The position numbers were made by a program, and so were the translations under genes. A stretch of 63,268 bases of DNA from Candidatus Pacearchaeota archaeon (GTDB lineage: Archaea; Nanobdellota; Nanobdellia; Pacearchaeales; GW2011-AR1), in contig JBNLBP010000001.1 in the NCBI GenBank assembly GCA_050302495.1, positions 1 through 63,268 of the forward strand, given 5' to 3'. How positions within the stretch are numbered: the first letter of the stretch is position 1; each line of letters begins with the position of its first letter. The notes below the pieces were generated by a model. It searched no databases. It was not told the origin of the DNA and saw only the letters and a program-made list of their open reading frames with translations. This document shows, in pieces, positions 8,495-61,208 of this stretch.

Positions 8495-10061
8495 CTCTTA
8501 CTGCAATTATAATTATAACTATTACAAGGATTAAATTAAGTAATCCAATTCCCCATAAGTGCCAGTTTGATCCACTTATTGCGAATCCAGTTATCAAAGA
8601 TTTCTTTGATACTTCAACAGATACAGGTTGATTTGCAATTAAAGCTCCACTTGAGATAACTTCTATGTTGAATATTTCTTCTCCGAAAGCATCAGATTTA
8701 ACGTCAAGAGTTATCAAAACATCTTCTGATTCTCCAGCGTCAAGAGTCAAAGTAGTCTTAGTTAAGTCAGCTCCATCAGCCCAAGATCCGTAACCTGCAA
8801 CGTTTAAAGTATAAGTAGTAGTTTTTTCTCCTGAATTGATTAATGTAGCTTTAACAGTTAAAGGTTTTCCAGCTTGTCCTCCATCTTGAAGAACTGCGTG
8901 TACTTCAGCATCAGTAGAACTCGAACACTCACCAGAAATTGTTACAGATTGTGAAAATGTAGATAACTCGTCATCATGGTCTGCTTCGTATATGTCTCCG
9001 TCTTCGTCAAGTACAGAGAACTTAAAGTTGTAAGTTCCTGAAGCATCTTCTGGAATTGGAATAGTTAAACTGAATGATTCTGAATTTAAAGCATCAATAT
9101 CTCCAACTGAAACATATTTTTCAATTCCAAGTCTTGATTCAACAACTTTAACTTCTATATCATCTTGGTCTCTGTCTCCAATATTCCAAACGTCTCCTGA
9201 AATAATCATATCAGAACCACATTGAAGATTTTCTGGTAATTTAAGGTCATCTAATACAGCAAAATCTCTTTCAATAATTATATCAACTGATTCAGAAGTG
9301 AAATCACAAGTATTTGGTTTTGAATCAATATCTACTTCACCTGTTGCTCTTGCATATAATTCGTAAGATCCATCTTCAAGATCTTCAAGGTCAATATCTA
9401 AATCATGATCATCAAGTGTGAAGCTGATTGTAACTGTCTCATCATCTCCATCCTTTATTTTAAAGCTATCAACATCATCTATTTCAATAATCCATTCATT
9501 GCTTGAGCTGTCGTAAATACCCCATTCAAGTTCAACATCTCTCAAGTCTTCATCTCCATTGTTTTCGATTCTAACTTCAATTTCTATTTGGTCTAGAGGG
9601 AACCATTCTTCATCGTCACCGATACCTTCTTTTATTTGAATATCTCTTATTTCTATGTCTAAATCTCCCCCATAGTTCTCATATTTACACAAATTAGTGT
9701 TTTGTGCAGTAACTGAGTAAGATAGAGTTTCAGATCCTGATTGAGTTATATCAAATGTAGAAGTGTAAGATTTAAGGAAATCAAAATCTCTTAAATTAAC
9801 TTGAGGAGTAACTGTCAAAACAGTTTCATTGTTAGAGTCAAGTGTTGTATTTCCTGAAACGGCAAAAGTAACCCCATTAATAGTAAAATCACTGTAAGAG
9901 ATATCACTTGAAATATTTGAACTAACAGTAATAGTTTGTGAGTTATTGTTATTAAAGGTTAATGAGGAAGGGCTTACACCTAAAGTTGCACTAGTAAATC
10001 CAGCTAAAAGCAATAATGCAAACATGCTTACAAACACTAAAACTAAATTTTTGTTTTTCAT
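8481..10061 (-). CDS. acidic surface adhesin-like protein (CARDB-like repeats) with C-terminal TM anchor / sorting-signal-like tail
   Basis: Signal peptide MKNKNLVLVFVSMFALLLLAGFTSA; Asp/Glu-rich beta-repeat regions; C-terminus TGFAISGSNWHLWGIGLLNLILVIVIIIIAVRVARK is a short motif + TM helix + basic tail, the tripartite layout of PGF-CTERM-type archaeosortase signals. Confidence 0.55.
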   Translation of the reverse strand: MKNKNLVLVFVSMFALLLLAGFTSATLGVSPSSLTFNNNNSQTITVSSNISSDISYSDFTINGVTFAVSGNTTLDSNNETVLTVTPQVNLRDFDFLKSYTSTFDITQSGSETLSYSVTAQNTNLCKYENYGGDLDIEIRDIQIKEGIGDDEEWFPLDQIEIEVRIENNGDEDLRDVELEWGIYDSSSNEWIIEIDDVDSFKIKDGDDETVTISFTLDDHDLDIDLEDLEDGSYELYARATGEVDIDSKPNTCDFTSESVDIIIERDFAVLDDLKLPENLQCGSDMIISGDVWNIGDRDQDDIEVKVVESRLGIEKYVSVGDIDALNSESFSLTIPIPEDASGTYNFKFSVLDEDGDIYEADHDDELSTFSQSVTISGECSSSTDAEVHAVLQDGGQAGKPLTVKATLINSGEKTTTYTLNVAGYGSWADGADLTKTTLTLDAGESEDVLITLDVKSDAFGEEIFNIEVISSGALIANQPVSVEVSKKSLITGFAISGSNWHLWGIGLLNLILVIVIIIIAVRVARK

Positions 10062-10170
10062 TTGTAATCATTTTGGAGTTACTATGGTTTATAAATATTT
10101 CTATTTTACAAAATATGAATTAATTTTCCTATCTCAAAACATTTATATAATTGTCTGGCTGTAAGTAGAT

Positions 10171-10557
10171 ATGCTTAAGTCAAAAGAGAACGAAATAGGT
10201 GCATGGTCTTTTTTGGTAGGAGTTATTCTTGCTATTTTAATAGGTTTGACTACCTCACTTATCCCCATTCCTGCTTTGGTTAGGTTAAGCTCTCCAATTT
10301 ACGCTCTTTTAGTTATTTTAGGTCTTTTGATAGGGGGTTGGAATGTTCCGAGTGGAAAGGATTCTCAGAAGTTCTTGATTGCGGGAGCAGTATTAGTAAT
10401 AGTTAGTAGATTTGGTATGGATAGTGTTACAGGCTCTTTAATTGGTATTGGAATAGGTGATGCTGTTGCAGCTGTATTTAGTGCTTTATTAGTGTTGTTT
10501 GTGCCTGCTACAATAGTTGTAGCGCTGAAGAACGTGTTTTCTGTGGCAAGAGTTTAG
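10171..10557 (+). CDS. small integral membrane protein
   Basis: 128 aa, 3-4 hydrophobic helices, Gly-rich. Confidence 0.45.
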   Translation: MLKSKENEIGAWSFLVGVILAILIGLTTSLIPIPALVRLSSPIYALLVILGLLIGGWNVPSGKDSQKFLIAGAVLVIVSRFGMDSVTGSLIGIGIGDAVAAVFSALLVLFVPATIVVALKNVFSVARV

Positions 10558-31388: not shown

Positions 31389-32096
31389 ATGAATTTCATA
31401 AAAAAAGTTGCTGATAAGCATTTTGATGAGTCTGTTCATTTGCAGTTTCAAAAATTCTCTAAAGGAGAGTTCAGAAATAGGGCTATAATTGAAGCTAAAA
31501 ATTCTAAAGGAAAATATACAATCAAAACTTCTGCGGAATTCTCCAATGAACTCGTTAGAGATGTTGCTGAAAAACTTGGAAGTAATAAATCAAAAATTAC
31601 AGGAGCGATTGTTTCTACCTCTGATCTAAAGGGAGAGTTAGAATTTAAAGAAGTTAAGCAATTTCAAGGCGTTAAAAGATATTTGATTGATAGTGAAATG
31701 TCGGGCGAGGAGATTATCAAGTTATTGGATAAATTCCCAAAGAATTTCTTTGCACTTTCTTTCAAATTGGAAGATGGAACTGAACTTAAGATAAAACCCA
31801 AAGCTCCTAAATCAGGAAAACCGGGGAAGGGAGAGGAAGCTCCTAAAGCAGATTTCTGTGTTTTGAAAACCACAGATAAAGATTTAGCAGAAGGATTTAT
31901 CTTTGAGCAACCAATGTTTAAGACTGCAAAGATTAATCATACTTTCTTTATTGATAAAATAGAGATACCAGAAGATTTGAAGAGTTCTAAAGATTTTGCA
32001 ATGATAAGGGAAATGTCAAAAAGAATTGGGAGAATTATAAGAAATGCTGAAATTGATGATAAAAAGCTTGAGGAAGAATTGAGCTTTGAGGCTTAA
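31389..32096 (+). CDS. hypothetical protein upstream of the r-protein operon
   Basis: 235-aa ORF, Lys-rich, no recognisable motif. Confidence 0.4.
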   Translation: MNFIKKVADKHFDESVHLQFQKFSKGEFRNRAIIEAKNSKGKYTIKTSAEFSNELVRDVAEKLGSNKSKITGAIVSTSDLKGELEFKEVKQFQGVKRYLIDSEMSGEEIIKLLDKFPKNFFALSFKLEDGTELKIKPKAPKSGKPGKGEEAPKADFCVLKTTDKDLAEGFIFEQPMFKTAKINHTFFIDKIEIPEDLKSSKDFAMIREMSKRIGRIIRNAEIDDKKLEEELSFEA

Positions 32097-32318: not shown

Positions 32319-33275
32319 ATGCCAACAAGAAAATCACCAAGAAAAGGAAGCTTGCAATTTTGGCCTCGAAAGAGGATCAACAAATTTTTGCCTAGAGTTA
32401 ACTGGAGTGCTATTAATTCTGATAAGAAATTGAAGGGATTTGTTGGATATAAGGCAGGGATGGTTTCTGTTGAAGTTAAGGATTTAACTGCCAATTCAAT
32501 GACTAAAGATAAGAAGATAATTATTCCGGCTACAGTTATTGAATGTCCTAAGATGAAAATCTTTTCGGTTAGATTCTACAAAAATGGGGTCGTTAAGAAG
32601 GATGTTTTAGCTGAACAATTCGACAAGGAACTTAAGAAAAAGGTTAAGGTTCCAAAAGAGAATAAATTGAAGCTTGATTCTGTAAAAAGTGAGAATTATG
32701 ATGATGTTTCTGTTATTGCTTATACTGTTGTTAAGAAAACAGGATTGAAGAAGAAACCAGATATGGCTGAAATTGGTATTTCAGGTTCAAGTGTTGATGA
32801 GAAATTAAGTTTTGTTAAAGAGAATTTGAATAAAGAGTTGAGTGTTACGGATTTATTCGCTTCAGGAGATTTAGTTGACTTTAGAGGTTTAACTAAAGGT
32901 AAAGGTCTTGTTGGTCCTGTAAAGAGATTTGGAATTACATTAAAAGCTCATAAGTCGGAGAAAGGTGTTAGAAGACCAGGTAATGTTGGTCCGTGGCATC
33001 CTGCAAGAGTTACTTTTAGAATCCCTATGGCAGGTCAATTAGGGAAGTTTACAAGAGTACATTATAATCAAAAAGTTATTGTAACTGGAAATGATGAAGA
33101 AGTTAAGAAATCTTTGAAAGCGATAAAGAACTATGGAAATGTTAACATGGATTATGTTATTGTTTCTGGTTCAGTTCAAGGTCCAGCAAAGAGACAAGTG
33201 TTTATTACTGCTCCTTTGAGAAAAAGTAAAATGTCTGCAAAGAAGAATTATGAATTCGGGAGAATATTGAGATAA
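32319..33275 (+). CDS. rpl3: ribosomal protein L3 (uL3)
   Basis: MPTRKSPRKGSLQFWPRKR... and FVGYKAGMVSV match uL3. Confidence 0.9.
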   Translation: MPTRKSPRKGSLQFWPRKRINKFLPRVNWSAINSDKKLKGFVGYKAGMVSVEVKDLTANSMTKDKKIIIPATVIECPKMKIFSVRFYKNGVVKKDVLAEQFDKELKKKVKVPKENKLKLDSVKSENYDDVSVIAYTVVKKTGLKKKPDMAEIGISGSSVDEKLSFVKENLNKELSVTDLFASGDLVDFRGLTKGKGLVGPVKRFGITLKAHKSEKGVRRPGNVGPWHPARVTFRIPMAGQLGKFTRVHYNQKVIVTGNDEEVKKSLKAIKNYGNVNMDYVIVSGSVQGPAKRQVFITAPLRKSKMSAKKNYEFGRILR

Positions 33276-33276
33276 A

Positions 33277-33522
33277 ATGGATATTGGAGAATCAATGGCG
33301 AAGAGAAAAATGATTGAAGAATTTAAGAAGTTAGAAATTGTAGCAGAAGCATTTTCTGAGGTTAAGGGGAATGTTGCTAAAGACAAAGATCTTGGGATGA
33401 GGATTGATGAAACAACAGAATTTCATTATAATATTAAAACAAATTATGAAGAAGCAAAGGGAAAATTCGTTGGAGAAGATGGAATGCAATATGCTTTTGA
33501 AATAAGGAGATATAACGATTAA
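33277..33522 (+). CDS. small hypothetical protein inserted between L3 and L4 (YegP/DUF1508-like motif)
   Basis: 81 aa; 1-nt spacers to both neighbours; motif FHYNIKTNYEEAKGKFVGEDGMQYAFEIRRY. Confidence 0.55.
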   Translation: MDIGESMAKRKMIEEFKKLEIVAEAFSEVKGNVAKDKDLGMRIDETTEFHYNIKTNYEEAKGKFVGEDGMQYAFEIRRYND

Positions 33523-33523
33523 A

Positions 33524-34363
33524 ATGAAAACTAAAACATACGATTTAACAGGGAAAGAAAAAGCAGAAATTGCATTACCCAAAGAATTTAGTTCTAAGGT
33601 AAGAGAAGATATTGTTTCTAAAGTTCTTGAAGCTGCAAAGAAACATCAACCTTACTCTCCAAGTCCTGTTGCAGGAAAACAACATTCTGCCAAAGGAAAG
33701 ATTGTACATAGAAGACATGTTTGGAGAAGTGGTTATGGTAGAGGAGCATCAAGAGTACCAAGAAAAATATTCTCACAGAAAGGTTCAAGATTTAATTGGG
33801 AAGCTGCAGAAGTTCCATTCGCAAGAGGCGGTATGAGAGCTCACCCTCCAAAGATAGAACACTTCTTAAAAGAACTTAAGATCAATAAGAAAGAATTAAA
33901 GATTGCTTTTGTATCTGCATTGAGTGCAACAGCTTCTGAAAAATATGTTGTTGATAAATATGCTACAGTAAATAAATTGAATAAAAAAGTGCCATTCATC
34001 TTAACTCTTGGAAATACTGAAAACTTGAAAGTTAAAGATTTACTTAATGGTTTGAAAGGTATGCTTGGAGAAGAACTTTACAATATTGCAATAAAGAAAA
34101 AATCAATTAGGGCTGGAAAAGGAACAATGAGAGGTAGAAAATACAAATCAAATGCAGGTATGCTTTTAGTTGTTGGAAAAGATGAAATTGGAAAAGTAAA
34201 AACTAAAATGTTTGAAGTTGTTTCGGCTGGAGAACTTGGAGTTACAGATCTTGCCCGAGGAGGATTAGGAAGATTAACTGTTTATACTGAAAATTCTGTT
34301 AAAGAATTAGAAAATAAGTTTAATGGTAAAACTGAAAAGAAAGTGGAGGAAAAGAAAAAATGA
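33524..34363 (+). CDS. rpl4: ribosomal protein L4 (uL4)
   Basis: 279 aa; HRRHVWRSGYGRGASRVPR typical of uL4. Confidence 0.9.
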   Translation: MKTKTYDLTGKEKAEIALPKEFSSKVREDIVSKVLEAAKKHQPYSPSPVAGKQHSAKGKIVHRRHVWRSGYGRGASRVPRKIFSQKGSRFNWEAAEVPFARGGMRAHPPKIEHFLKELKINKKELKIAFVSALSATASEKYVVDKYATVNKLNKKVPFILTLGNTENLKVKDLLNGLKGMLGEELYNIAIKKKSIRAGKGTMRGRKYKSNAGMLLVVGKDEIGKVKTKMFEVVSAGELGVTDLARGGLGRLTVYTENSVKELENKFNGKTEKKVEEKKK

Positions 34364-34692
34364 ATAGTGTAGAAATTAAAGTTGTTGAAAATTGGGAAAA
34401 ACCTGAAGTTTTCAGGACTTTAAAAGAAAAAGATTTGATAAGTGATAAAGAAGTTGTATTTGAATCCTTCAAGTTGAGAGGAGAAGGAACTTCTTTAATT
34501 CATACGCTCCAGAGAGTCAAGCCAGGAATTGTGAAGGTTAAAAAATATTATTTTGAATCAGGTAAATTGAGCAGTAACGCAGGAGTGGATTATTGGACCA
34601 ATTCACTGGATATAGGATATAATCCAGAAGCAAAATCAGATCAAATACTTTATGATGCAGAAGATAAATTCCTAAGAGAGGCAGGATTATGA
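34360..34692 (+). CDS. small hypothetical protein inserted between L4 and L23
   Basis: 110 aa; ATGA overlaps at both ends; motif KKYYFESGKLSSNAGVDYWTNSLDIGY. Confidence 0.55.
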   Translation: MNSVEIKVVENWEKPEVFRTLKEKDLISDKEVVFESFKLRGEGTSLIHTLQRVKPGIVKVKKYYFESGKLSSNAGVDYWTNSLDIGYNPEAKSDQILYDAEDKFLREAGL

Positions 34693-35626: not shown

Positions 35627-35995
35627 ATGGAAATGAAATTACAAACAACTGGAATAAAGTATGAAAATCTAGTTGGAAAAGGATTAGAACTTTTTTGTGA
35701 AAGTGCGGTCAATAAAGATGAAAATGTTGTGGGAAGGTATCTTCCTGGAATTGAGGGACAAGAGATAACCTATTTAGGAAATTTAGGACATAGATTCGGA
35801 GAAAGAGATTTATTTGGATTTGAAGAAGACAATAAATTGACTGTCCTTGTTGGAAACATAAAAGACATTACTGGAAACAGGGCAACGTTAAGCACCTTTG
35901 TTCAAAGCATTTCCCCAAATTTTTACGGAACTGAAAATTTGAGTGATGAGATTTTAAAACAATGCAAAGAGATTTTGTCAGGAGTAAAAGAATAA
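35627..35995 (+). CDS. small hypothetical protein inserted between L2 and S19
   Basis: 122 aa; 1-nt spacers on both sides; Gly-rich, no TM. Confidence 0.5.
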   Translation: MEMKLQTTGIKYENLVGKGLELFCESAVNKDENVVGRYLPGIEGQEITYLGNLGHRFGERDLFGFEEDNKLTVLVGNIKDITGNRATLSTFVQSISPNFYGTENLSDEILKQCKEILSGVKE

Positions 35996-37907: not shown

Positions 37908-38207
37908 ATGGAAATAGATCCAAAAACAGGATTGCCAGTTCAGGCAATGGAGTGGGAAGACCTTGCAAAGGGTTCCCAAAAAATACGGGTAACGACCGAT
38001 AAAAAAAGATACGGAAAGATCGTTACTCTAGTGAGTGGTTTCGACAAAGGAATCGACATAAAGAAAACCGCAAAGGCATTGAAGAATGAACTTGCGTGTG
38101 GCGGGACCTTTAAGGACGATGCAGTTGAACTGCAAGGAGACCACACAAAGAAAGTAAAGCAAGTCCTTGTAAAAATGGGATTTGACGAAAGCTCCATAGA
38201 AGACTGA
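37908..38207 (+). CDS. sui1: translation initiation factor SUI1 (aSUI1/eIF1)
   Basis: 99 aa; IRVTTDKKRYGKIVTLVSGF...LACGGT matches the SUI1 fold; canonical position after L29. Confidence 0.8.
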   Translation: MEIDPKTGLPVQAMEWEDLAKGSQKIRVTTDKKRYGKIVTLVSGFDKGIDIKKTAKALKNELACGGTFKDDAVELQGDHTKKVKQVLVKMGFDESSIED

Positions 38208-38225
38208 AGAGGTGAAAAATAAAAA

Positions 38226-38570
38226 ATGGAAAGTAAGAAAATGAAAAAAACAGAAGTAAAAGAATCAAAAATAGTTGGAACTGAAAAGAGTATAAACCCA
38301 AGAGGAAAGATCTTCGAGGGAGTTGTAACAGCAAAGTTCCACAAGAGAATAACAATCGAATTCGAAAGAATGGTTTATATTAGAAAGTATGAAAGATATG
38401 CAAAGTCGAAGACAAAAATCCATGCAAGACTCCCAGTTTCAATGGAAAACGAAGTTAATGTTGGAGATTTGATAAGAGTTCAAGAGTGTAGACCTTTAAG
38501 TAAGATAATCCATTTCATCGTGGTTAAGAAATTAAAAGATGCTTCAGAAATTTTAGGAGGAAAGAAATAA
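38226..38570 (+). CDS. rps17: ribosomal protein S17 (uS17)
   Basis: 114 aa; GKIFEGVVTAKFHKRITIEFERMVYIRKYERY matches uS17. Confidence 0.9.
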   Translation: MESKKMKKTEVKESKIVGTEKSINPRGKIFEGVVTAKFHKRITIEFERMVYIRKYERYAKSKTKIHARLPVSMENEVNVGDLIRVQECRPLSKIIHFIVVKKLKDASEILGGKK

Positions 38571-40640: not shown

Positions 40641-40907
40641 ATGGCAAATAAAATAACTTTAAAGAATAGGGAGAAATTGAGGGAAGAGCTTGAGAAGTTA
40701 GTTGTACAAGTTGATGAGATAAACGACTTCATGGGGCAGTTACCTCATAACAATCATGGGCAGGCAACTAGGAGCTTAAACCCTAAGAAAGGTGAATATT
40801 TAAGTCACTTTGATGGAAATAGCGAAGGCATAGTTGGAAAATATCGTTCAAAAAATGGAGAGGTTTATACTATTAGCGTATCAAAAGAATACGGAGGTGG
40901 AAAATAA
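40641..40907 (+). CDS. small hypothetical protein inserted between L5 and S14 (YegP/DUF1508-like motif)
   Basis: 88 aa; 1-nt spacers to both neighbours; N-terminal helix then GIVGKYRSKNGEVYTISVSKEY. Confidence 0.55.
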   Translation: MANKITLKNREKLREELEKLVVQVDEINDFMGQLPHNNHGQATRSLNPKKGEYLSHFDGNSEGIVGKYRSKNGEVYTISVSKEYGGGK

Positions 40908-48899: not shown

Positions 48900-49766
48900 A
48901 TGCTTGAAAGAATAATAAGCCCAAAAACAGGTGAGAAATATCCGTGGAGAATGTTCTTTGTAGGAATAATTTACGCTTCTCTTTCACTATTGCTTGTTCA
49001 TTGGTTGTTTGGAGATGACCCTAGTCTGTCTGGAGCATCAGGGATGATGGTTGTTCTATTTTGCATAATGTTTACATTACCTTATATGTATTTTATAATA
49101 CGTAGAGAGGAAAGAGAAGACGAAGGCGTAGAGGGTTTCTTTGGTGTTTGGAAAGTTCATAAAGACGCAATTTATTCCCTTATGTGGTTGTTCTTTGGTT
49201 TTATAGTTGCTTTTGCTTTCTGGAATATGATCTTGCAAGACCCAAATCTTCTAAATTTCCAAGTTCAAACTTACTGTCAAATAAATGATCCTGCAAATGT
49301 TTCAAGATGTGTCTCTGACTATTCATTTGAAAGTATTGGGCAGTCTCTTGGAACTGGTGCTGCAACAAAGGAATTAAGATTGTTGGCAATTATCGAAAAT
49401 AATGTATATGTTATGATCTTTACTTTAATATTTTCATTGTTGTTTGGTGCTGGAGCAATATTTATTTTGGTATGGAATGCTAGCGTTATATCCGCAGCAA
49501 TAGGTATTTTCTCCAGATATAATCTGAAAGATCTTCCATTGGGCATTGCAAGATATATGATCCATGGATTCCCTGAAATCGCAGCTTACTTCATAACGGC
49601 TCTTGCAGGAGGAATGTTTGGAGTAGGAATTTTAAGGCATGGCTTCAAGGATAAAAGAACACTTAGAGTAATTGAGAATTCTATAATACTTCTGTTTATT
49701 GCAATAATTGTAATTATTCTTGCAGGGATTATTGAGGTTTATATAACTCCTCTTCTGTTTGGGTAG
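48900..49766 (+). CDS. SpoIIM-like (DUF95) family membrane protein
   Basis: 288 aa, ~6 TM; HGFPEIAAYFITALAGGMFG resembles the DUF95/SpoIIM signature. Confidence 0.45.
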   Translation: MLERIISPKTGEKYPWRMFFVGIIYASLSLLLVHWLFGDDPSLSGASGMMVVLFCIMFTLPYMYFIIRREEREDEGVEGFFGVWKVHKDAIYSLMWLFFGFIVAFAFWNMILQDPNLLNFQVQTYCQINDPANVSRCVSDYSFESIGQSLGTGAATKELRLLAIIENNVYVMIFTLIFSLLFGAGAIFILVWNASVISAAIGIFSRYNLKDLPLGIARYMIHGFPEIAAYFITALAGGMFGVGILRHGFKDKRTLRVIENSIILLFIAIIVIILAGIIEVYITPLLFG

Positions 49767-49796
49767 ATTTAAAAAAACCCAAATCAATAGAAAAGT

Positions 49797-50783
49797 ATGG
49801 AACCCTTAATTGCAATAACAATTTTTGCGAGTTTTTTTTGCTCATTTTTGATAACACCCCTTTGGATAAGGAAAGCCAAGTCTTTAGGGTTAACAGGTAA
49901 AGATATTCACAAGAAAAAATCTGAAGAGGTAGCAGAAGGGGGAGGAGTAGGTATCTTGTTTGGATTTACAATAGGCGTTTTACTTTATGTTGCAATAAAT
50001 ACGTTCTACTTTAACAATACTACCAAACTTACAGAAATATTTGCTTTACTTTGTGTTATATTCATAGGGTCAATTGTAGGAATAGTTGATGATTTGACTG
50101 GATGGAAAAAGGGGTTGAGTAGGAAGATAAGAATTGCGATAGTTGTATTTGCTGCAATTCCTTTAATGGTTATAAACGCGGGGGAATCTTCTATACTTGG
50201 AATAAATCTGGGCATATTCTTCCCATTGATAGTTATACCTCTTGGGATTGTTGGGGCGACAACAGTTTACAACACTCTAGCTGGATACAATGGTCTTGAA
50301 ACTTCGCAAGGTATGCTTTTACTTGGAGCTTTGGCTTATATTACATACATTACGGGAAACCCTTGGTTAAGTGTTGTTGCATTGTGTATGGTTGCTGCTC
50401 TTCTTGCATTCTACTTTTTCAATATGAATCCTGCTAAAATCTTCCCAGGAGATATTACAACATACTCAATTGGGGCTCTATTTGGGGGGATTGCTATAAT
50501 TGGAAATGTAGAAAAAATAGCTTTGTTCTTTTTCATACCCTATATATTTGAGATCATATTAAAGATCAGAGGTAAATTGGAAAAGGAGAGTTTTGGTAAA
50601 TTAAACCAAGATGGAGAAAGTCTTGATTTGAGGTATAATAAGATATATGGTCTTGAACATCTTGCTATAAAAATATTAAAGAAAGTCAAGAAATCTGGAA
50701 AAGCATACGAAAACGAAGTGGTCTGGTTGATAAATGGTTTCCAATTATTAATAATTATTCTTGGACTTTTGATATTCTTTTAA
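49797..50783 (+). CDS. aglH: UDP-GlcNAc:dolichyl-phosphate GlcNAc-1-phosphate transferase (AglH/GPT, MraY-WecA family)
   Basis: 328 aa polytopic; VGIVDDL (DDxxD) and NGLE motifs of polyprenyl-phosphate sugar-1-P transferases. Confidence 0.75.
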   Translation: MEPLIAITIFASFFCSFLITPLWIRKAKSLGLTGKDIHKKKSEEVAEGGGVGILFGFTIGVLLYVAINTFYFNNTTKLTEIFALLCVIFIGSIVGIVDDLTGWKKGLSRKIRIAIVVFAAIPLMVINAGESSILGINLGIFFPLIVIPLGIVGATTVYNTLAGYNGLETSQGMLLLGALAYITYITGNPWLSVVALCMVAALLAFYFFNMNPAKIFPGDITTYSIGALFGGIAIIGNVEKIALFFFIPYIFEIILKIRGKLEKESFGKLNQDGESLDLRYNKIYGLEHLAIKILKKVKKSGKAYENEVVWLINGFQLLIIILGLLIFF

Positions 50784-50820
50784 TAAAAAAGGTTTTAAAT
50801 GATCATTATTTATCAAGAAG

Positions 50821-53562
50821 ATGAGTGATAAAGAATTTTCCCTAAATGTTAAGGAAATTAAGAGTAGTTACAAAAAATCTAAGCATTTCTTTATGGACAA
50901 AAGAGTACAATTAATCCTTACTGCAGTTATTTTTCTTATTATACTAATATCTGCTTCTGTAATAAGAACCTCCAATTTGGACAATCTTAAAGACATGACT
51001 ACCGGAAACTATTCTGCAGCAGATCCAGATGCTCTTTATTTCCTAAGGCTGTCCCACGTTGTTCTTGACCAAGGAAATTTAAATGGTGTTGATGCTTTAA
51101 GGGCTCCAGGTTTAAACATACCTTATCTTAAGGAGATTGCCCCTTACACAATTGTTGGAATTTACAAAATAGCTAGTGTGTTTAGCCAGGGGGCAGATCT
51201 TAACTTCATTGCGGTAATTTCGCCAGTAATATTCTTCATTTTGGGACTAATTGTCTTTTTCTTTCTCTGTTATTATTTAACAAAATCAAAACTTGTTGCT
51301 TTACTTTCTTCCGCATTTTTAGCATTTTCACCTGCATATTTGTTTAGAACTATGTCTGGAGTTTTAGATCACGATTCTATAGGTATGTTGGGAATATTTG
51401 CGACACTACTCGTTTTTGCTGTAGGCTCTAAGAGATATAATAAATCAAAAAATAAAACTTTGTTGTGGGGAGGAATTTTGGGCCTATCAACAGCATTCGC
51501 ATTGGGAGCATGGGCAGGAGGGGTTACATTCTTGTTTATGATTATACCTCTTGCAATAATTGTTAATTACTTGTTTAACCTTGAAGGGAAAAAGGAGGAA
51601 AAAGAGAAACTAATTTTATTCAATATAACTTGGCTTGTTTCATATGTAATCTTCACTAGAATCATTGGATTTGCTATGTCTGATATACTTAATCGGTTGA
51701 CAAATCCTTCAAGTATGTTGGTATTACTCGTCTTAGGTTTTATCGTGGTGGATTATCTTGTTGAAAGAAACATGAAGAAGTTGAAAATGATTAAAGAAGA
51801 AAATAGGGTTGCTTATTCTATTGTTGCAGCAATAATTTTGGGAATCTTATTATTGACTTTGACGGGAAACAATTTCTTCTCTATGGTCTCTCAAATATAT
51901 TATAAAATCTTGAATCCTTTCGGTTACGGAGGAAGATTAGGTTCCACCGTTTCAGAAAATGCCCAACCGTATCTAACCTCTTGGATAAGCCAAATAGGAA
52001 AGGGTCTGTTCGCTTTATTCTTTGCAGGAATGGTTCTTATGGGGTTTGATTTTTCTAAGAAGATCGGCTCTAAAAAACACCGTATTTATTTTGTTGCGTT
52101 TTGGATAATCCTTATATCAGGGATATTATTTAGTAGAATCTCTCAAGGCCATATACTAAACGGAGAAAATTTCATAAGTCAAATATTTTACATTGGAGGA
52201 TTTTTATTATTCCTTATTTATTTCGTAAGACTATATTTCAAAAACAGATTTGAGATAGACAAAGACATGATCTTGGTTTTCTCTTGGATGTTATTCATGT
52301 TAGTTCTTAGTAGGGCTGCTGCAAGAACAATATTTGTTGCAACACCCTTTGCATGTTTCGCTGCAAGCTATTTGCTTGTTGGGTTGGGAAAGAGATTGAG
52401 AAAACCTAGAGAAGATACGATGAAAATGATTCTTTGGTTAATTTTCATAATAGGAGTTATACTTGCATTCGTTTCTTTATTTGGAAACCCTTTAACTCAG
52501 TCTCCAGGTACGTATCAAATACTTAAGAATCAGGCGTCAGGCATCGGTCAAGCAGCAAATTATCAATGGCAATACGCAATGGAGTGGGCAAGAGATAATA
52601 CTGGAGAAGGAGATATTTTTGTACACTGGTGGGATTATGGGTATCTCGTCCAAACCCTAGCAAATAGAAAGACCGTTAGTGATGGAGGTCATGCTGCAGG
52701 AGATTCAGGAGACCATAATGTAGGGAGATACATCTTAACAACCCCTAACCCTATTACTGCCTTGAGCTATATGAAGACTTGGAATGTTTCCTATTTGATA
52801 ATTGATCCAACAGATCTTGGAAAATATGGAGCATATTCAAAGATTGGAAGTGATAAGGATTATGATAGATACTCAGCTCCATTTGCTTTAGCAAAAGAAG
52901 ATAGTCAAACTGTTGAAACTTCTTCAGGAAACAAATTTGTTTACCAAGGAAGTAGTTTTGTTGACGGAGATATCAGCTATCAAGATATATTCATCCCTGG
53001 ACCAAGCTTTACAGAATCAGGACAAGCAACTGCGAACGCATACATTATAGGATTACTTTTAGAAACCTCCGATGTGTCGGAAGGAAGAACCGAGATAAAA
53101 CAACCCCAAGCAGTATTCTACTATAAAGATAAACAATATCAAATTCCCATAAGATATGTGTATTATCAAGGAAGGATTATGGATTTCCAATCAGGTATAG
53201 AATCAACATTCGTTTTGATTCCTAAAGTAAATGAAGACTCTTTAGGGTCAATAGGCATTGATTATACAGGGGCAGGAATGTATTTATCAGAAAAAGTCTC
53301 CGATAGTCTATTTGCAAACCTTTATTTGATGGATGATCCATTCAATAAATACCCTACAATCACTCTTGCAAATTCTGAAGATGATTACGTTGTTAATGCT
53401 TTGAAACAACAGGGTGCAGAGGTTGGGGACTTTGTATATTATGGTGGTTTCAGAGGTCCTTTAAAAATTTGGAAAGTAGAATACCCTCAAGGAACTGAAA
53501 CACATGATGAATTCTTGCAGTTGACTTCTAATTGGGAAGGAGAATTAGATAAATTATTTTGA
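50821..53562 (+). CDS. aglB: archaeal oligosaccharyltransferase AglB (STT3 family)
   Basis: 913 aa; 13-TM N-terminal domain, WWDYGY motif (IFVHWWDYGYLV), large C-terminal soluble domain. Confidence 0.9.
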   Translation: MSDKEFSLNVKEIKSSYKKSKHFFMDKRVQLILTAVIFLIILISASVIRTSNLDNLKDMTTGNYSAADPDALYFLRLSHVVLDQGNLNGVDALRAPGLNIPYLKEIAPYTIVGIYKIASVFSQGADLNFIAVISPVIFFILGLIVFFFLCYYLTKSKLVALLSSAFLAFSPAYLFRTMSGVLDHDSIGMLGIFATLLVFAVGSKRYNKSKNKTLLWGGILGLSTAFALGAWAGGVTFLFMIIPLAIIVNYLFNLEGKKEEKEKLILFNITWLVSYVIFTRIIGFAMSDILNRLTNPSSMLVLLVLGFIVVDYLVERNMKKLKMIKEENRVAYSIVAAIILGILLLTLTGNNFFSMVSQIYYKILNPFGYGGRLGSTVSENAQPYLTSWISQIGKGLFALFFAGMVLMGFDFSKKIGSKKHRIYFVAFWIILISGILFSRISQGHILNGENFISQIFYIGGFLLFLIYFVRLYFKNRFEIDKDMILVFSWMLFMLVLSRAAARTIFVATPFACFAASYLLVGLGKRLRKPREDTMKMILWLIFIIGVILAFVSLFGNPLTQSPGTYQILKNQASGIGQAANYQWQYAMEWARDNTGEGDIFVHWWDYGYLVQTLANRKTVSDGGHAAGDSGDHNVGRYILTTPNPITALSYMKTWNVSYLIIDPTDLGKYGAYSKIGSDKDYDRYSAPFALAKEDSQTVETSSGNKFVYQGSSFVDGDISYQDIFIPGPSFTESGQATANAYIIGLLLETSDVSEGRTEIKQPQAVFYYKDKQYQIPIRYVYYQGRIMDFQSGIESTFVLIPKVNEDSLGSIGIDYTGAGMYLSEKVSDSLFANLYLMDDPFNKYPTITLANSEDDYVVNALKQQGAEVGDFVYYGGFRGPLKIWKVEYPQGTETHDEFLQLTSNWEGELDKLF

Positions 53563-54368
53563 GAACAATGGATGGCAAAATTAAGAATAGCTTGAAAGAG
53601 AACTATGTCAAAAGAATAGCTAATAGAGTGATGAACACGCTTTATATCTACCCTTTCTTCAAACTAAAGGGTCCTTTGAAAGGCCATACGGCAAAAATAA
53701 TTAATTTGCATTACATAGAGAGGGCTCCAGAAACTCAAGTTGCGGAAATAATTGAGAGTAAAGTAAACCTCGGAGACAAGGTAATTGATGTGGGAACACA
53801 TTTTGGATACTATACCTTACTCATGGCAAAGAAGGTTGGATCGGAAGGAAAAGTCATATGTTTTGAGCCTTCTAAAGAGACAAGAAATATTCTTAGGAAC
53901 AATATTAAGAAAAATAAATACCAAGATAGAACAATAATTGAGAGCAAAGGCGTTTCCAATGAAAGAAAAACTCTCCCATTTAGCGTTAGGAAATTTAGTC
54001 CAATGAATACTTTTACGATTGAGGAATATGGAAATGTCAAAAAAATTGAATGTATTGATTTAGACACTTATTGTAAAGAGAAGGATATTACCCCTTCTTT
54101 CCTAAAGATTGATGTAGAGGGTGTGGAAAAAGAAGTTATTGAAGGTATGAAGAAGCTAATAAGAATAAGTAAACCAAAGGTTCTCCTTGAAGCTTCAAAA
54201 GAAACAGAAGGTATGGAAGAAATATTTGATATGTTTATTAAAAATGGATACAAAGTTTACACTTGGAGAACAAGGGTTGATGAGGACTCTTGGAAAGATC
54301 TGGTTGAAATAAAAAGGCCAGGAGAAGTGATTACAAAACACATCTACTTCGAGTATCCTCTTTTCTAG
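53559..54368 (+). CDS. FkbM-family methyltransferase
   Basis: VIDVGTHFGYYT (SAM-binding) and FLKIDVEGVE motifs; 4-nt overlap with aglB; TAG stop. Confidence 0.7.
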   Translation: MRTMDGKIKNSLKENYVKRIANRVMNTLYIYPFFKLKGPLKGHTAKIINLHYIERAPETQVAEIIESKVNLGDKVIDVGTHFGYYTLLMAKKVGSEGKVICFEPSKETRNILRNNIKKNKYQDRTIIESKGVSNERKTLPFSVRKFSPMNTFTIEEYGNVKKIECIDLDTYCKEKDITPSFLKIDVEGVEKEVIEGMKKLIRISKPKVLLEASKETEGMEEIFDMFIKNGYKVYTWRTRVDEDSWKDLVEIKRPGEVITKHIYFEYPLF

Positions 54369-55471
54369 TTTATCGCTTTAGAATATATTTCTCTTAGAAT
54401 TTCATTTCTTTTTTCTATGGAAAATTTCTCTTTTGATTCTTTTATAGCATTCTTAGACATTTTATTAAGTAGTTTTTTATTCTTTATTAGCAATGAAGTT
54501 TTCTCAACAAGATTACTTATGAACGTTTCATCCATTTCAGCATACCCTTTCCAATTTTTAGGAAGATCTATTAGAAAACCTGTTTTCCCTTCAGAAACCA
54601 ATTCTGATTTTGCAAAACTATTTGTTGTTATTACAGGTAATCCGTACGCCAATGCTTCTGGAACTGCAAAACCATAAGAATCTCCAAACCCGGGGTAAAA
54701 GAATATATCTGAAGAAGGATAAATTTCTTTGAATAACTTCTCTTGAGGAATAAGGTCCATTATTTTTATCTGTTTGTTTTTAGAATACTTATCTTTAAAC
54801 TCCTTTGGAATCGGACAGAGAAATATAAATTCAACATTCTTATGATTTTTTGATAAACGATCAAAGACCTCCAAAGTTTGACGGCCCCCTTTTGCATCAA
54901 ACCACCTTGCAACGAATAAAACTCTTGTTTTTTTGTGAGGTATTTTCTTAAAATTAACGGGAGGTGTTGCGAAAGGCACAATAGCCATTTTGTCTAAGAT
55001 CTTTCTATTTCTATGGAATGCTTTTTCAAAAGTTTTTTTGCAATCTTCTGACCAAACCAATATTTTCTTACAATATTTACTCTCTAGCCTATTTCTTATT
55101 ATTGCTTTTCCTAAGCCCTTTGTGGCAGTATTTCTACCTGCAGAAGCTAATTGATCATAAACTTCAGTATCTACCACCCATGGTTTCCTATTTAAGCTTA
55201 AACAGTGAGCACAATGAATTAGATCAAAATTTCTTGAGGTAGTAAAGGTTAAGTTAGGCAAGTGGATCAGCCTCAATAATTTCCTTATTCTATTTTTGAA
55301 AACCCTCATAGATTCGAATTTCCTTCCAGATCCAATAATTTCCATTTTCTTTGAATTCTTTTTGTAGTTAACATAACTAATATTTTTTGGAGGAAAATCA
55401 AGAATGTTTTTGTAGTATGAACTATCTGGAAATTTCCATGGATATTGCAGATGAACCTTGATTTCTTTCAT
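54365..55471 (-). CDS. glycosyltransferase family 4 (GT-B, retaining)
   Basis: C-terminal YPGFGDSYGFAVPEALAYGLPVITT...GKTGFLI matches the GT4 E-x7-E region. Confidence 0.8.
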   Translation of the reverse strand: MKEIKVHLQYPWKFPDSSYYKNILDFPPKNISYVNYKKNSKKMEIIGSGRKFESMRVFKNRIRKLLRLIHLPNLTFTTSRNFDLIHCAHCLSLNRKPWVVDTEVYDQLASAGRNTATKGLGKAIIRNRLESKYCKKILVWSEDCKKTFEKAFHRNRKILDKMAIVPFATPPVNFKKIPHKKTRVLFVARWFDAKGGRQTLEVFDRLSKNHKNVEFIFLCPIPKEFKDKYSKNKQIKIMDLIPQEKLFKEIYPSSDIFFYPGFGDSYGFAVPEALAYGLPVITTNSFAKSELVSEGKTGFLIDLPKNWKGYAEMDETFISNLVEKTSLLIKNKKLLNKMSKNAIKESKEKFSIEKRNEILREIYSKAIN

Positions 55472-55523
55472 ATATATTTTGCATACCAGAAGAGTTTATA
55501 AAATTATAACCTTGATAATAAGT

Positions 55524-56717
55524 ATGGTTAAGGAAGTGGACGCGGTTTACGTTGTTGCATCCAAATTGGGAAGTATTGGAATGGGTTCTGCAGCATATAG
55601 TGCTATAAAAGGTATTGATAAATCAAAAGACATATCTTATAGAATTTTCTGTAGAGGATATAATTCTAAAGTTAAAATAAATAAAAAAAATCTTATTTCT
55701 TATGGATATTTAGAATATCTTTCTTACCCTTTTCGTTTTTTGGAGAAAAAACTTAAGATAAAGATTGATTCATTCAAATGGGTAAACTATCTTTTTGGCA
55801 AAAGAATTTATAAAAATCTGCCAAAGTGTAAGATCTACCATACTTGGATGGGGATATCTCCAGAAGCGATAAAAAAGGCAAAAAAGAACGGAGCAATATT
55901 GATTCTAGAAGCGGCAAATTCCCACCCCCTAAATTTCTTAAATCTTATTAATGAAGAATACAAAACTTTTGATTGCGATAAATTCATTTTAGAAACTGAA
56001 AAATTTAAGAAAGATGTGGAATACATAAAATCATTTGACTATATTTCTTGCCCGTCTGATTTCGTTTATAATTCTTTTTTGGAAGAAGGCTTTGCAAAAG
56101 AAAAACTAATAAAGATTAACTATGGGGTTGATGTGGACAAATTTTCTCCTTCTAGAAGAAAGAAAGATAAGAAATTTCGGGTGTTATTTGTGGGATCAAT
56201 ACAAATGAGAAAAGGAATTCCTTATTTACTAAAAGCGTGGGAAGAATTGAATTTAAAAGATTCTGAACTAGTTGTTGTAGGAAGTGTTTATCCTGAAGCT
56301 GTTCAAATTATTAAGAAATATTTAAAAAACCCTTCAATAAAATTCTGCGGTTTTAACCCTGATTTGAGGGAATACTATTCAAATGCGGATGTTTTTGTAT
56401 TTCCTTCTATTGAAGAGGGTTCTGCTTTAGTTAATTATGAGGCTATGGCTTCAGGTTTACCATTAATCACAACATTTAATTCAGGAAGTGTTGCAAGAGA
56501 CGGAAAGGAGGGATTTATTATACCTATAAGAAATACAGAGAAGTTAAAAGAAAAAATAAAATTTATGCATGACAACCCTAAAAAACGTATTCAAATGGGC
56601 AAAAATGCTAGAAAAAGAATCGAAGAATTTACTTGGGACATATACGGAAAGAAGTTATCAAATCTTTATCGAGATCTCCTGAAGAAATCAAAATATACTT
56701 CTCTTACAATTATTTAA
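55524..56717 (+). CDS. glycosyltransferase family 4
   Basis: Start chosen at MVKEVDAVYVV (the 55458 start overlaps the convergent gene); FPSIEEGSALVNYEAMASGLPLITT...GKEGFII GT4 signature. Confidence 0.8.
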   Translation: MVKEVDAVYVVASKLGSIGMGSAAYSAIKGIDKSKDISYRIFCRGYNSKVKINKKNLISYGYLEYLSYPFRFLEKKLKIKIDSFKWVNYLFGKRIYKNLPKCKIYHTWMGISPEAIKKAKKNGAILILEAANSHPLNFLNLINEEYKTFDCDKFILETEKFKKDVEYIKSFDYISCPSDFVYNSFLEEGFAKEKLIKINYGVDVDKFSPSRRKKDKKFRVLFVGSIQMRKGIPYLLKAWEELNLKDSELVVVGSVYPEAVQIIKKYLKNPSIKFCGFNPDLREYYSNADVFVFPSIEEGSALVNYEAMASGLPLITTFNSGSVARDGKEGFIIPIRNTEKLKEKIKFMHDNPKKRIQMGKNARKRIEEFTWDIYGKKLSNLYRDLLKKSKYTSLTII

Positions 56718-56736
56718 GAATAATAATGTTTATTAA

Positions 56737-57759
56737 ATGTCATTTTTTGAGGTTCTTATGGATTTAACAAATGAATATTTGAATAAAAAAGTATTGATTA
56801 CAGGCGGTGGCGGCTTTATTGGAAGCAACCTTGCAATAAAATTAGTAGAATTAGGCGCAGAAGTTTCGGTAATGGATTCGAAATTAAAGCCTTATGGGTT
56901 TAATTTGTTTAATCTTGATCCAGTGTTGGATAAAATAAATATAGATTATTCGGATATAAGGGATAGAAATGCTGTTGAAAGGAATATTGCTGGACAAGAT
57001 ATAATCTTTAATTTGGCTGCACAGGTAGGTGAAAAAGTAGGAGAGGAAAATCCTTTTTTAGACTGGGACATAAATGTTAGAGGGCACATGGAAGTATTAA
57101 ATGCATGCAAAAACAAAAATAAAGAAGCAAGAATAATATTTCCAGGTTCAAGGTTACAATATGGTAAGACAAATGGGGCAGAGATAATTTCTGAAAGCCA
57201 CCCCATGAACCCCTTAACTAATTATGCCAGAAACAAAGTCGTGGGGGAAGAAATGTACCAAAAACTTAACAAAGAGGGTTTAGAAACGGTAACATTTAGA
57301 ATTGCTAATCCTTTCGGTCCTCGTGCATCAATTAATAATCCTGGTTATTGTATTGTCAATTGGTTTATTGGTAGGGCCTTGGATGGAAAAGATTTACCCA
57401 TTTATGGAGAAGGGTCTCAGGCAAGAGATTATATTTTTATAGAAGATTTAACAGATGCTATGGCAATCGCAGGAGTCCATAAAAATTCTCCAGGAAACAC
57501 TTACAATTTAGGGTCAGGCCAGAAGACTTTATTCAAAGATATGGCTGAGAAAATAGTTGCACTTTCAGAAAATAATTATTCAAAAATAAATTTTGTTGAA
57601 TGGCCAAAAGATGCAAAAGAAAGAGAGACTGGAAATTTTGTCGCAGATATCTCAAAGATAGAAAGAGAATTGGGTTGGAAGCCTAAGTATAGTTTAGAAG
57701 AGGGTCTGAAAAGAACAATTGAATTTTATAGAGAAAATAAGAACAATTATATTGGATAA
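56737..57759 (+). CDS. NAD-dependent epimerase/dehydratase (extended SDR; UDP-sugar 4-epimerase/decarboxylase-like)
   Basis: VLITGGGGFIGSNL Rossmann motif, YARNKVVGE (YxxxK). Confidence 0.75.
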   Translation: MSFFEVLMDLTNEYLNKKVLITGGGGFIGSNLAIKLVELGAEVSVMDSKLKPYGFNLFNLDPVLDKINIDYSDIRDRNAVERNIAGQDIIFNLAAQVGEKVGEENPFLDWDINVRGHMEVLNACKNKNKEARIIFPGSRLQYGKTNGAEIISESHPMNPLTNYARNKVVGEEMYQKLNKEGLETVTFRIANPFGPRASINNPGYCIVNWFIGRALDGKDLPIYGEGSQARDYIFIEDLTDAMAIAGVHKNSPGNTYNLGSGQKTLFKDMAEKIVALSENNYSKINFVEWPKDAKERETGNFVADISKIERELGWKPKYSLEEGLKRTIEFYRENKNNYIG

Positions 57760-57841
57760 AATCACGAGAATATTTATAAAATAGAAAAAAATTCTAGATG
57801 AATGAGGAATAATTTTATTACATTTTGTAGGAGGTTATTGG

Positions 57842-58426
57842 ATGGAAGATCAAGAAAGTAAAGTTTATTTTTCGATTGGGGAGAGTATAAATGCAAAAAA
57901 ATCTTTTTATAGTCGCCCAAAAGATCTTGTTGATATTTCAAACAAAATTTATGAGTCTTTAAATAAAGGTCAAAAAATACTTGTTTTTGGGAATGGAGGT
58001 AGTGCGGCAGATGCACAACACATTGCAGGAGAGTTAGTTGGAAGGTTTAAGAAAGAACGTAAAGCTTTAGCAGCAATGGCTTTAACCACAGATACATCCG
58101 TAATAACATCATTATCTAATGATTATGATTATTCAAAGGTATTCGAGAGGCAAATTGAAGCATTTGCTAGGGAAGGAGATATTTTATGGGGAATTTCAAC
58201 CTCAGGAAACTCGGAAAACGTTATTAAAGGTCTTGAAAAAGGAAGAGAAATAGGCACTTATAATTTTTCTATGACTGGTAAAGATGGAGGCATAGTAAAG
58301 AAATTAAGTGATTTTAATATAAATATTGATTCTAAAAACACTCCAAGAATTCAGGAAGCACATCAATTGGCGTACCATATTATTTGCGAATTGGTTGAAG
58401 ATAAAATATATCATAATAATCTTTAA
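57842..58426 (+). CDS. gmhA: SIS-domain phosphoheptose isomerase (GmhA-like)
   Basis: 194 aa; ILVFGNGGSAADAQHIAGEL matches GmhA/SIS; GGAGGT 7 nt upstream. Confidence 0.7.
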   Translation: MEDQESKVYFSIGESINAKKSFYSRPKDLVDISNKIYESLNKGQKILVFGNGGSAADAQHIAGELVGRFKKERKALAAMALTTDTSVITSLSNDYDYSKVFERQIEAFAREGDILWGISTSGNSENVIKGLEKGREIGTYNFSMTGKDGGIVKKLSDFNINIDSKNTPRIQEAHQLAYHIICELVEDKIYHNNL

Positions 58427-58452
58427 AAAGAAAAACAAAGTTTTAGGAAGGT

Positions 58453-60496: not shown

Positions 60497-61149
60497 ACAA
60501 TATTTTTTATGGAATACTTTCTGTAGGGTTTGACATCGATCAAACAATGTACGCAAAAAATAGTGAAATAGACTTAATTATTCAAGATGAAATTGCGAGG
60601 AAGATTCTTGAAATAAAACCTTCTTTCAATAATCTTGAATCAGCAAAAGAATTTTCTGAAAGAAGATATTCTGAATTAGGGAGCCGAACAAGTGTGTTAG
60701 AAGAGGTTGGCTATAAAAATGCTCAAGAAATCTTGTACGGATGCATTTCAAGTGATAAAACAATAAACCCTCTCCAGAAAGACGAAAGGCTTCAGGAAAT
60801 GATTTCAAGATTGGGACATAAATATGATCTTTTTTTAATAACTAATAATTCGGAGGATATTGCGACTAAAAAATTAGATCGATTAGGTGTTGACAAGTCT
60901 TTATTTAACCTAAAATTTTATGGAGACACATTACCTGGAATAAAAAAATCTGATGGTTCTTTGTTCAAATATTTCCTAAGTAGGTCCAAACATTCCCCTG
61001 AAAACCACATATATGTCGGAGATAGCCTTAATGCAGACATAATCCCTTCTAAAAAGCTAGGTTTCAAAACAATTTGTGTAGGAAATCACTTTCTTGAAGC
61101 GAATTATTCTGTTAAAGAAATTTATGATATAGAAAATCTTCTTCTATAA
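60493..61149 (+). CDS. HAD-superfamily hydrolase (subfamily IA-like)
   Basis: Motif I VGFDIDQTM, motif IV YVGDSLNADI; 4-nt overlap with upstream gene. Confidence 0.6.
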   Translation: MNNIFYGILSVGFDIDQTMYAKNSEIDLIIQDEIARKILEIKPSFNNLESAKEFSERRYSELGSRTSVLEEVGYKNAQEILYGCISSDKTINPLQKDERLQEMISRLGHKYDLFLITNNSEDIATKKLDRLGVDKSLFNLKFYGDTLPGIKKSDGSLFKYFLSRSKHSPENHIYVGDSLNADIIPSKKLGFKTICVGNHFLEANYSVKEIYDIENLLL

Positions 61150-61208
61150 GGCAATTTAGGGTAACCTAGGACATAAATTCTTTTAAAGGAATCACCCATC
61201 AAATATTA

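Follow-up and report, generated by a model that had tools for sequence, protein, structure and literature searches.

What is an open reading frame of 81 codons doing between the genes for ribosomal proteins L3 and L4, and by what route may it have arrived there? In this work, we have addressed this question in a stretch of DNA of 63,268 nucleotides (the window), which has a GC content of about 33% and belongs to a DPANN archaeon of the Pacearchaeota/Woesearchaeota type. Its gene cluster holds archaeal-type genes (P0/L10, L12/P1, SUI1, S4e, L32e and L19e), and the closest L3 sequences, 87% and 81% identical, come from MAGs labelled Woesearchaeota or Pacearchaeota, the first value being that of the nearest genome, L002. 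We propose, with a probability of roughly 0.6, that the reading frame, which we call insA, is a lineage-specific orphan, a fast-turnover passenger cistron in the main ribosomal protein (r-protein) operon of this archaeon. Its product would be an accessory protein of individual strains, which the cell can do without and which profits from strong constitutive expression.

The insA reading frame and its putative expression signals

The insA orphan frame runs from ATG to TAA at positions 33277..33522 of the forward strand. Its upstream neighbour on the same strand is the uL3 gene (32319..33275, 318 aa; Pfam Ribosomal_L3, PF00297, E=3.6e-56) and its downstream neighbour the uL4 gene (33524..34363, + strand, 279 aa; Pfam Ribosomal_L4, PF00573, E=5.5e-17). 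The L3 stop codon TAA (33273-33275) is separated by a single base, A (33276), from the insA ATG, and the insA stop codon TAA (33520-33522) by another single A (33523) from the L4 ATG at 33524. As read from the sequence, both borders on the + strand spell TAAAATG, at 33273..33279 and at 33520..33526, the former in the context GAGATAA-A-ATGGAT and the latter in the context GATTAA-A-ATGAAA. The first-pass annotation had described an 81-aa ORF with a gap of one nucleotide on each side between L3 and L4, and both its coordinates and its translation are borne out.

Our results show that insA is a real coding gene, native-looking and adapted to its host, rather than a frame that happens to be open in AT-rich DNA. 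Of mononucleotide shuffles, a fraction of only 1.2e-4 stays stop-free, and the five other reading frames of insA contain 2-12 stops. The GC content at codon positions 1, 2 and 3 is 0.46, 0.26 and 0.24, respectively, and G at the first position reaches 0.42, against 0.27 expected from stop avoidance alone. With codon-usage log-odds learned from 26 long genes of the window, insA scores +0.43 bits per codon in frame 0, compared with -0.53 and -1.35 in the other frames; among real in-frame chunks of 81 codons this is the 81st percentile, and it exceeds all out-of-frame chunks. The sequence is moreover present in two independent assemblies, a Logan contig of SRR36185838 and a 268-kb NCBI contig. 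That insA might be a chance ORF or an assembly artefact, as its lack of cluster mates and of an annotation name could be taken to hint, is therefore extremely unlikely, given the low stop-free probability, the strong frame-specific codon bias, its recovery in two assemblies and the analogous packed ORFs found in many independent genomes. A structured RNA in place of a gene was likewise rejected, since the Rfam search of the region returned no match and its fold z-score of -2.05 is unremarkable. insA is a genuine extra cistron, at a junction that is normally closed across archaea.

How would such a cistron be expressed? Two Shine-Dalgarno (SD)-like motifs on the + strand, read from the sequence (the 16S 3΄ end lies outside the window), frame the two starts at the same distance: GGGAGA (33258..33263), in the 3΄ end of L3, lies 13 nt upstream of the insA ATG, in whose initiation it probably plays a role, and AGGAGA (33505..33510), formed by codons Arg77-Arg78 in the 3΄ end of insA itself, lies 13 nt upstream of the L4 ATG. 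In this part of the operon a GGAG-type motif precedes each cistron start, and the arrangement TAA-A-ATG recurs at the L23–L2, L2–insC, insC–S19 and S19–L22 junctions (insC is a further insert, described below). No terminator-like site was found on the + strand between L3 and L4, and promoter-like matches there occur at chance level only. We propose that insA, lacking a promoter and a terminator of its own, is transcribed together with L3 and L4, and that it is translated by coupling through the L3 TAA, the single base, the ATG and the GGGAGA motif located 13 nt upstream. Since the last codons of insA provide the AGGAGA motif 13 nt before the L4 start, L4 expression would be preserved. Most of the junction ORFs that we found in relatives also carry, in their 3΄ end and at similar spacing, a GGAG-type motif for the next gene. 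Owing to these SD-like 3΄ ends, peptides such as REAGL and KEAGL recur at the C-termini. Almost every insert boundary has coupling signals.

Families, homologues and fold of the insA protein

The first-pass annotation had likened the C-terminal segment of insA to one YegP/DUF1508 repeat, a likeness that no search reproduced, whether against Pfam, PDB sequences or by Foldseek. In the Pfam-A hmmscan no family matched at E<=1 (nor, likewise, at E<=0.01), in NCBIfam none at E<=10 and in PHROGs none, and no PADLOC model of anti-phage defence recognized the protein. insA matches none of the r-protein profiles of Pfam and NCBIfam, and no transposase, integrase or nuclease domain was detected in it with Pfam, PHROG or NCBIfam. 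Searches for individual homologues gave the same picture: phmmer over 1.84 billion representatives (standing for ~15 billion proteins) and a word-indexed search of 5.8 billion clusters both returned insA only, its protein cluster has a single member, and no relatives were found in viral contigs. Sensitive blastn and tblastn revealed neither a paralogue nor source DNA in the 63-kb window or in the ~90 related loci. Profile searches had been proposed in the first-pass annotation as a check on insA, with the absence of homologues elsewhere counting against its reading; at the sequence level such homologues are indeed absent, insA finding only itself. As far as these searches reach, insA is a strict ORFan with no detectable relative.

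An AlphaFold2 single-sequence model, of low confidence (mean pLDDT 53), places a helix at residues 3-29 and strands at residues 38-42, 48-53, 59-65 and 71-77. This agrees with the N-terminal helix and distinct C-terminal segment that had been read from the sequence, the latter being beta in the model, within the limits of a pLDDT of 53. When this model was compared with the PDB by Foldseek, there was no match at E<=0.001, the TM-scores did not exceed 0.42 and no YegP entry appeared among the best 50. Because the pLDDT of the model is only 53, this fold test is a weak one; no fold can be assigned, and insA could still have a known fold. What then of the proposal that insA is a diverged YegP/DUF1508 repeat protein? 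In its favour are a visual impression of a beta-rich C-terminal segment and the four strands of the low-confidence model, so that the likeness amounts to that of a small protein with a predicted beta-rich segment. There is, however, no PF07411 match at E<=1, no YegP-like chain in the PDB search at E<=10 and none among the Foldseek matches. With no YegP/DUF1508 entry in any search, whether by profile, sequence or fold, the suggestion fails its defining test, and we rejected this assignment as one with next to no probability.

The only match in the PDB phmmer search at E<=10 was the Rhs protein 8h8b (E=0.09; domain E of 4-5), in which insA residues 40-79 align to one YD-type hairpin (GxxxDxxTxxHYNxxxxYxxxxGxF). 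We treated this as chance, because no RHS profile matches (neither Pfam RHS_repeat nor the NCBIfam Rhs core), and an Rhs/YD-repeat assignment was discarded: the E-value is at chance level, and a protein of 81 aa is too small for an Rhs shell.

The predicted pI of insA is 5.1, whereas the r-proteins of the same cluster range from 8.7 to 11.0. Being acidic among basic r-proteins, insA does not look like a ribosomal protein, and we rejected this possibility on the grounds of its pI, of the absence of any profile match and of a junction which in relatives is either empty or otherwise occupied.

Occupants of ribosomal-operon junctions in relatives

Is an ORF between L3 and L4 a peculiarity of this genome? 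Using L3 we retrieved 80 loci from genomes and, using L4, 9 from metagenomes; the core genes were then mapped in them, and gaps of at least 120 nt between neighbouring genes were scored. The order L3-L4-L23-L2-S19-L22 was kept in 81 loci. The L3–L4 gap reached 120 nt in 15 of these 81 and stayed below it in the other 66; one of the wide gaps, in L075, is an artefact of an N-terminal extension at the L4 start. Each of the remaining wide gaps (about 14 loci) contains one tightly packed ORF of 75-161 aa, whose stop and start codons usually overlap or abut those of its neighbours. All the loci with an L3–L4 ORF are DPANN (labelled Pacearchaeota, Woesearchaeota or Nanoarchaeota), while the non-DPANN loci, L075 left out, are all closed at this point (Hadarchaeota, Thorarchaeota, Bathyarchaeia, Methanocellales and other groups). 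The first-pass annotation had called an extra gene here unexpected; this holds for archaea at large, with the junction closed in 66 of 81 loci, but not for this clade, in which such ORFs are common. It had also proposed to look for an ORF at this junction in related genomes, and ORFs are found there in about 14 loci, but they encode unrelated proteins. What is conserved is therefore the occupied position and not the gene.

Other junctions are affected too. Gaps of at least 120 nt were found in 13 of 80 cases at L4–L23, in 12 of 74 at L23–L2 and in 9 of 65 at L2–S19, and are rarer further downstream. Of 85 such ORFs, 67 take up roughly 90% or more of their gap. Acidic products predominate among the junction ORFs (36/57), and at L3–L4 in particular 11 of the 12 distinct ORFs scored have a pI below 7. 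All-against-all phmmer comparison of the junction ORFs gave 41 clusters, 31 of them singletons, and the sole large cluster is, we presume, the ordinary Rpp29 gene of non-DPANN archaea. Among the occupants, Pfam recognized only a DEDD exonuclease, found at L4–L23 in six loci, and a single HAD hydrolase, at L23–L2 (L007:8022-8471, in GW2011_AR19). Taken together, the junction ORFs are a large, heterogeneous and mostly acidic set of ORFs of 50-270 aa, distributed patchily over the r-protein junctions of this clade.

Two of these genes deserve a separate description. The exonuclease is a conserved DEDD-type 3΄-5΄ enzyme of ~200 aa (Pfam Rv2179c-like/RNase_T) and is present in six Pacearchaeota-like loci (L009:3200-3856, L011:7951-8571, L013:4702-5295, L015:7788-8525, L087:4804-5481 and L090:374-1027). 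The gene of the large cluster, which encodes 58-100 aa, comes from 27 non-DPANN archaeal loci (among L028-L081), where its neighbours are SUI1 and S17; from its position we take it to be, most probably, Rpp29, a subunit of RNase P. No representative of the family came from a Pacearchaeota-like locus, and in the window (37908-38570) S17 directly follows SUI1 with no such member between them.

In the window itself, insA is one of seven Pfam-less ORFs between translation genes. Two others lie in the same operon, both on the + strand and each the only member of its cluster: insB (34360-34692, 110 aa, pI 5.5) at L4–L23, whose start overlaps the L4 stop (ATGA), and insC (35627-35995, 122 aa, pI 4.9) at L2–S19, with TAA-A-ATG on both sides. 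The remaining four are found between Spt5/NusG and L11 (13013-13378, - strand, 121 aa), L10 and L12 (23988-24305, + strand, 105 aa), L5 and S14 (40641-40907, + strand, 88 aa, which overlaps the start called for S14) and L30 and L15 (44671-44889, + strand, 72 aa, with a GTG start). A 13-gene glycosylation cluster of the same window (48900-62996) contains no such inserted ORFs. Directly upstream of L3 there is also a 235-aa Pfam-less ORF (31389-32096, + strand), present at the same position in most Pacearchaeota-like relatives with 46-73% identity; its sole family match, to the Crn1 ring nuclease, is faint and below threshold (E=0.0045, with 16.7 bits where the cutoff is 125).

None of the occupants could be related to insA. 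Against the other L3–L4 occupants Smith-Waterman z-scores were at most 3.5, the hhalign probability was 11% with the L023/L026 profile, and it did not exceed 3% with 53 junction ORFs. DNA-level z-scores between insA and the occupants were not significant either, in a comparison of little power, since it also missed the true L002/L085 pair described below. The occupants L002_108 and L003_113 are ORFans too, with no wider family in the search of 5.8 billion clusters.

The closest relatives of the window give a view of how fast these ORFs change. A neighbour-joining tree of L3 and L4 has the topology (L003,(window,(L019,(L002,L084)))), with L4 80-88% identical inside the inner clade. Along this tree the L3–L4 junction is empty in L003, holds insA in the window, is empty again in L019 and carries ORFs of 108 aa in L002 and of 121 aa in L084; in both L019 (L4 82% identical) and L003, L3 directly abuts L4. 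No two of these genomes are closer than L002 and L084 (L4 identity 88%), yet beyond the first few codons their L3–L4 occupants are unrelated; the ORF of L002 has its homologue in L085, which is more distant (z=5.9, ~37% identity, against 81% for L4). insB is homologous between the window and L002 at the same L4–L23 junction (z=11.5, ~40% identity, against 83% for L4) and missing from the nested L019 and L084, which implies that clean losses or allele swaps occur. insC has no homologue in L002, the L2–S19 junction of which contains an unrelated ORF of 127 aa with a weak 2TM-type match. In two cases one ORF family was found at two different junctions, namely L23–L2 of L003 with L4–L23 of L085, and L22–S3 of L012 with L23–L2 of L021. 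insA may thus either have replaced an earlier occupant or be an orthologue that has diverged beyond recognition.

Such divergence raises the question of whether the peptides matter at all. The junction ORFs could be translated spacers, that is, DNA that landed in the operon and was kept open for no other reason than to let ribosomes pass from L3 to L4, which would preserve coupling and avoid polarity while the peptide itself is functionless. This would account for ORFs that fill their gaps exactly and keep the SD for the next gene, for the preponderance of singletons among the occupants, and for identities of ~40% (insB) and ~37% (the L002/L085 occupants) next to L4 identities of 83% and 81%. 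Against it, the composition of insA goes beyond stop avoidance (0.42 against 0.27 for G at the first codon position), its codon score falls at the 81st percentile of real genes, and as judged from the sequence and the model of pLDDT 53 its strands show an alternating hydrophobic pattern and its helix is amphipathic. We regard this explanation as rather improbable for insA.

A second explanation starts from the acidity of the products. insA might encode a factor that is associated with the ribosome and specific to this lineage, such as an acidic protein that escorts or chaperones uL3 and uL4, both of which are very basic. Its place in the operon, with a predicted co-expression at matching stoichiometry, would suit such a role, as would a pI of 5.1 beside neighbours of pI about 10, the pI below 7 of 11 of the 12 L3–L4 occupants, and the location of the seven ORFs of the window between translation genes, with none in the 13-gene glycosylation cluster. 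However, there is no sequence conservation between occupants, the junction is empty in the nearest relatives L019 and L003, and insA matches no ribosomal or chaperone family, so that we consider this possibility, which is argued by analogy, unlikely. The analogy is with Rrb1 and Acl4, which are dedicated eukaryotic chaperones of uL3 and uL4, respectively. The sole parallel is a functional one, an acidic protein made together with very basic uL3 or uL4; unlike Rrb1 and Acl4, which show no homology to it, insA is much smaller and is not conserved even among close relatives.

A broader form of this idea can also be put forward. The r-protein junctions of Pacearchaeota-type DPANN archaea might serve as a dedicated nursery, or landing pad, for small proteins, most of them acidic, that are made in step with the r-proteins and have these or the ribosome as their targets. 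Such proteins would be ribosome accessory factors specific to a strain, or escorts of uL3, uL4 and other r-proteins, with insA as the L3–L4 representative; rapid replacement would then reflect conflict or adaptation of the translation apparatus and not neutral hitch-hiking. This is a speculation to which we give a low probability.

The features of insA itself fit the passenger reading that we prefer: no outside homologues, the same strand as the operon, spacing of 1 nt, and a junction that is empty in close relatives. In opposition to the passenger reading, the recurrence of acidic ORFs of similar size at the same junction could reflect a position-specific function.

Probable route of insertion and comparison with known systems

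How could these ORFs enter such a tightly packed operon? The empty L3–L4 site of L019 reads GAGATAAAATGAAAAC and contains TAAAATG once, whereas insA is flanked by TAAAATG on both sides. As this is the generic junction of the operon, the flanking copies are no proof of a target-site duplication. A repeat search of positions 33150-33650 found no terminal inverted repeats at the ends of insA, and an origin of insA as an IS or MITE was rejected on this basis. The possibility that the L3–L4 occupants, insA included, derive from partial duplication of L3 or L4 was also rejected, because no similarity beyond chance was found.

A perfect 12-nt direct repeat, ATGAAAACTAAA, brackets the 121-aa L3–L4 insert of L084 (L084:1520-1531 and 1887-1898). 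The repeat corresponds to the L4 start (MKTK), so the insert's own first four codons are those of L4. This repeat suggests that microhomology or duplication accompanied insertion, at least in L084. The inserts of L002, L085 and L084 are the only ones that share their first few codons with the L4 start, and they go on with (K)YEI, resembling the L4 residues TYD(I/L).

A further indication comes from the population to which L002 belongs. The metagenome contigs L083 and L082 are identical to L002 over several kb, all four inserts included, except for short divergent patches (L002:6413-6957, 9211-9610 and 10013-10412) of 400-550 nt and 4-7% divergence, which lie in the 3΄ ends of L3 and L2 and in the 5΄ end of S19 and adjoin the inserts. 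These patches may be recombination tracts that end in conserved flanks, although assembly path-switching between strains would look alike. Given the patchy phylogenetic distribution of the inserts and this mosaic divergence next to them, we infer that the most likely route is homologous recombination with the highly conserved flanking r-protein genes as arms, by which junction inserts would be gained, swapped and lost quickly.

In the window, an imperfect direct repeat of ~45 nt brackets insA, with one copy in the L3 3΄ region (33156-33200) and the other, ~450 nt away, in the L4 5΄ region (33608-33648); it consists of a 10-nt exact core, TATTGTTTCT, and a 24-nt stretch at 71% identity. Both copies fall inside conserved-looking protein motifs, REDIV.KVLEA in L4 (as seen across loci) and IVSGSVQGPAKR in L3 (by reading), and the repeat is therefore probably coincidental.

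Could insA be the cargo or remnant of a mobile or selfish element that targets r-protein junctions, be it by homing-type insertion, as a cassette or as a gene of immunity or anti-defence conflict? The patchy distribution, the presence of the same family at different junctions, the perfect repeat ATGAAAACTAAA of L084, the TAAAATG on both sides of insA with one copy at the empty site, and the divergent patches adjoining inserts are all compatible with such an origin. Nevertheless, insA and nearly all the other occupants lack nuclease, transposase and integrase domains, insA has neither a PADLOC match nor terminal inverted repeats, viral contigs yielded no relative, and TAAAATG is the generic junction of the operon. 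We therefore hold this origin to be quite unlikely, and continue to favour a passenger cistron carried between the conserved genes.

What known systems resemble this one? ORFans are often inserted in native operons and expressed from the native promoter, as in the E. coli sdhCDAB-b0725-sucABCD and flhBAE (flhE) operons, and the place of such an ORFan in an operon does not mean that it shares a function with its neighbours (Price, Arkin & Alm 2006, PMC1480536). Like these, insA has no outside homologues and lies on the same strand with tight spacing in an older operon, presumably under the native promoter, and its function need not be related to that of its neighbours. Unlike them, it resides in the most conserved gene array known, at an internal site between coupled r-protein cistrons, and the phenomenon recurs with unrelated ORFs across one archaeal clade, with seven cases in the window. 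A second comparison is with phage morons, extra genes between conserved syntenic genes which typically have their own promoter and terminator. Both systems present variable, unrelated small genes between conserved neighbours that differ in close relatives; insA differs from the morons in that it would depend on coupling, with no promoter or terminator of its own, and in that its host is a cellular r-protein operon.

On its own, insA is of modest interest, and the clade-wide pattern is the more notable result. In a full-text literature search of incomplete coverage we found no description of inserts in DPANN r-protein operons, and the clade-wide colonization of these junctions appears to be undescribed in the literature searched. 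The pattern also carries a warning against annotating junction ORFs by their position or by a faint motif likeness such as that to YegP. The L3-L4-L23-L2-S19 array is among the most conserved gene orders and is the backbone of phylogenomic marker sets, yet it has been repeatedly invaded by orphans, which indicates that the r-protein operon tolerates, or perhaps attracts, new cistrons in tiny, promoter-poor genomes. If it is true that the junction proteins bind ribosomes or r-proteins, they would represent a new class of lineage-specific DPANN translation factors. In either case, these junctions offer a natural system for the study of orphan-gene birth, coupled expression, exchange and loss.
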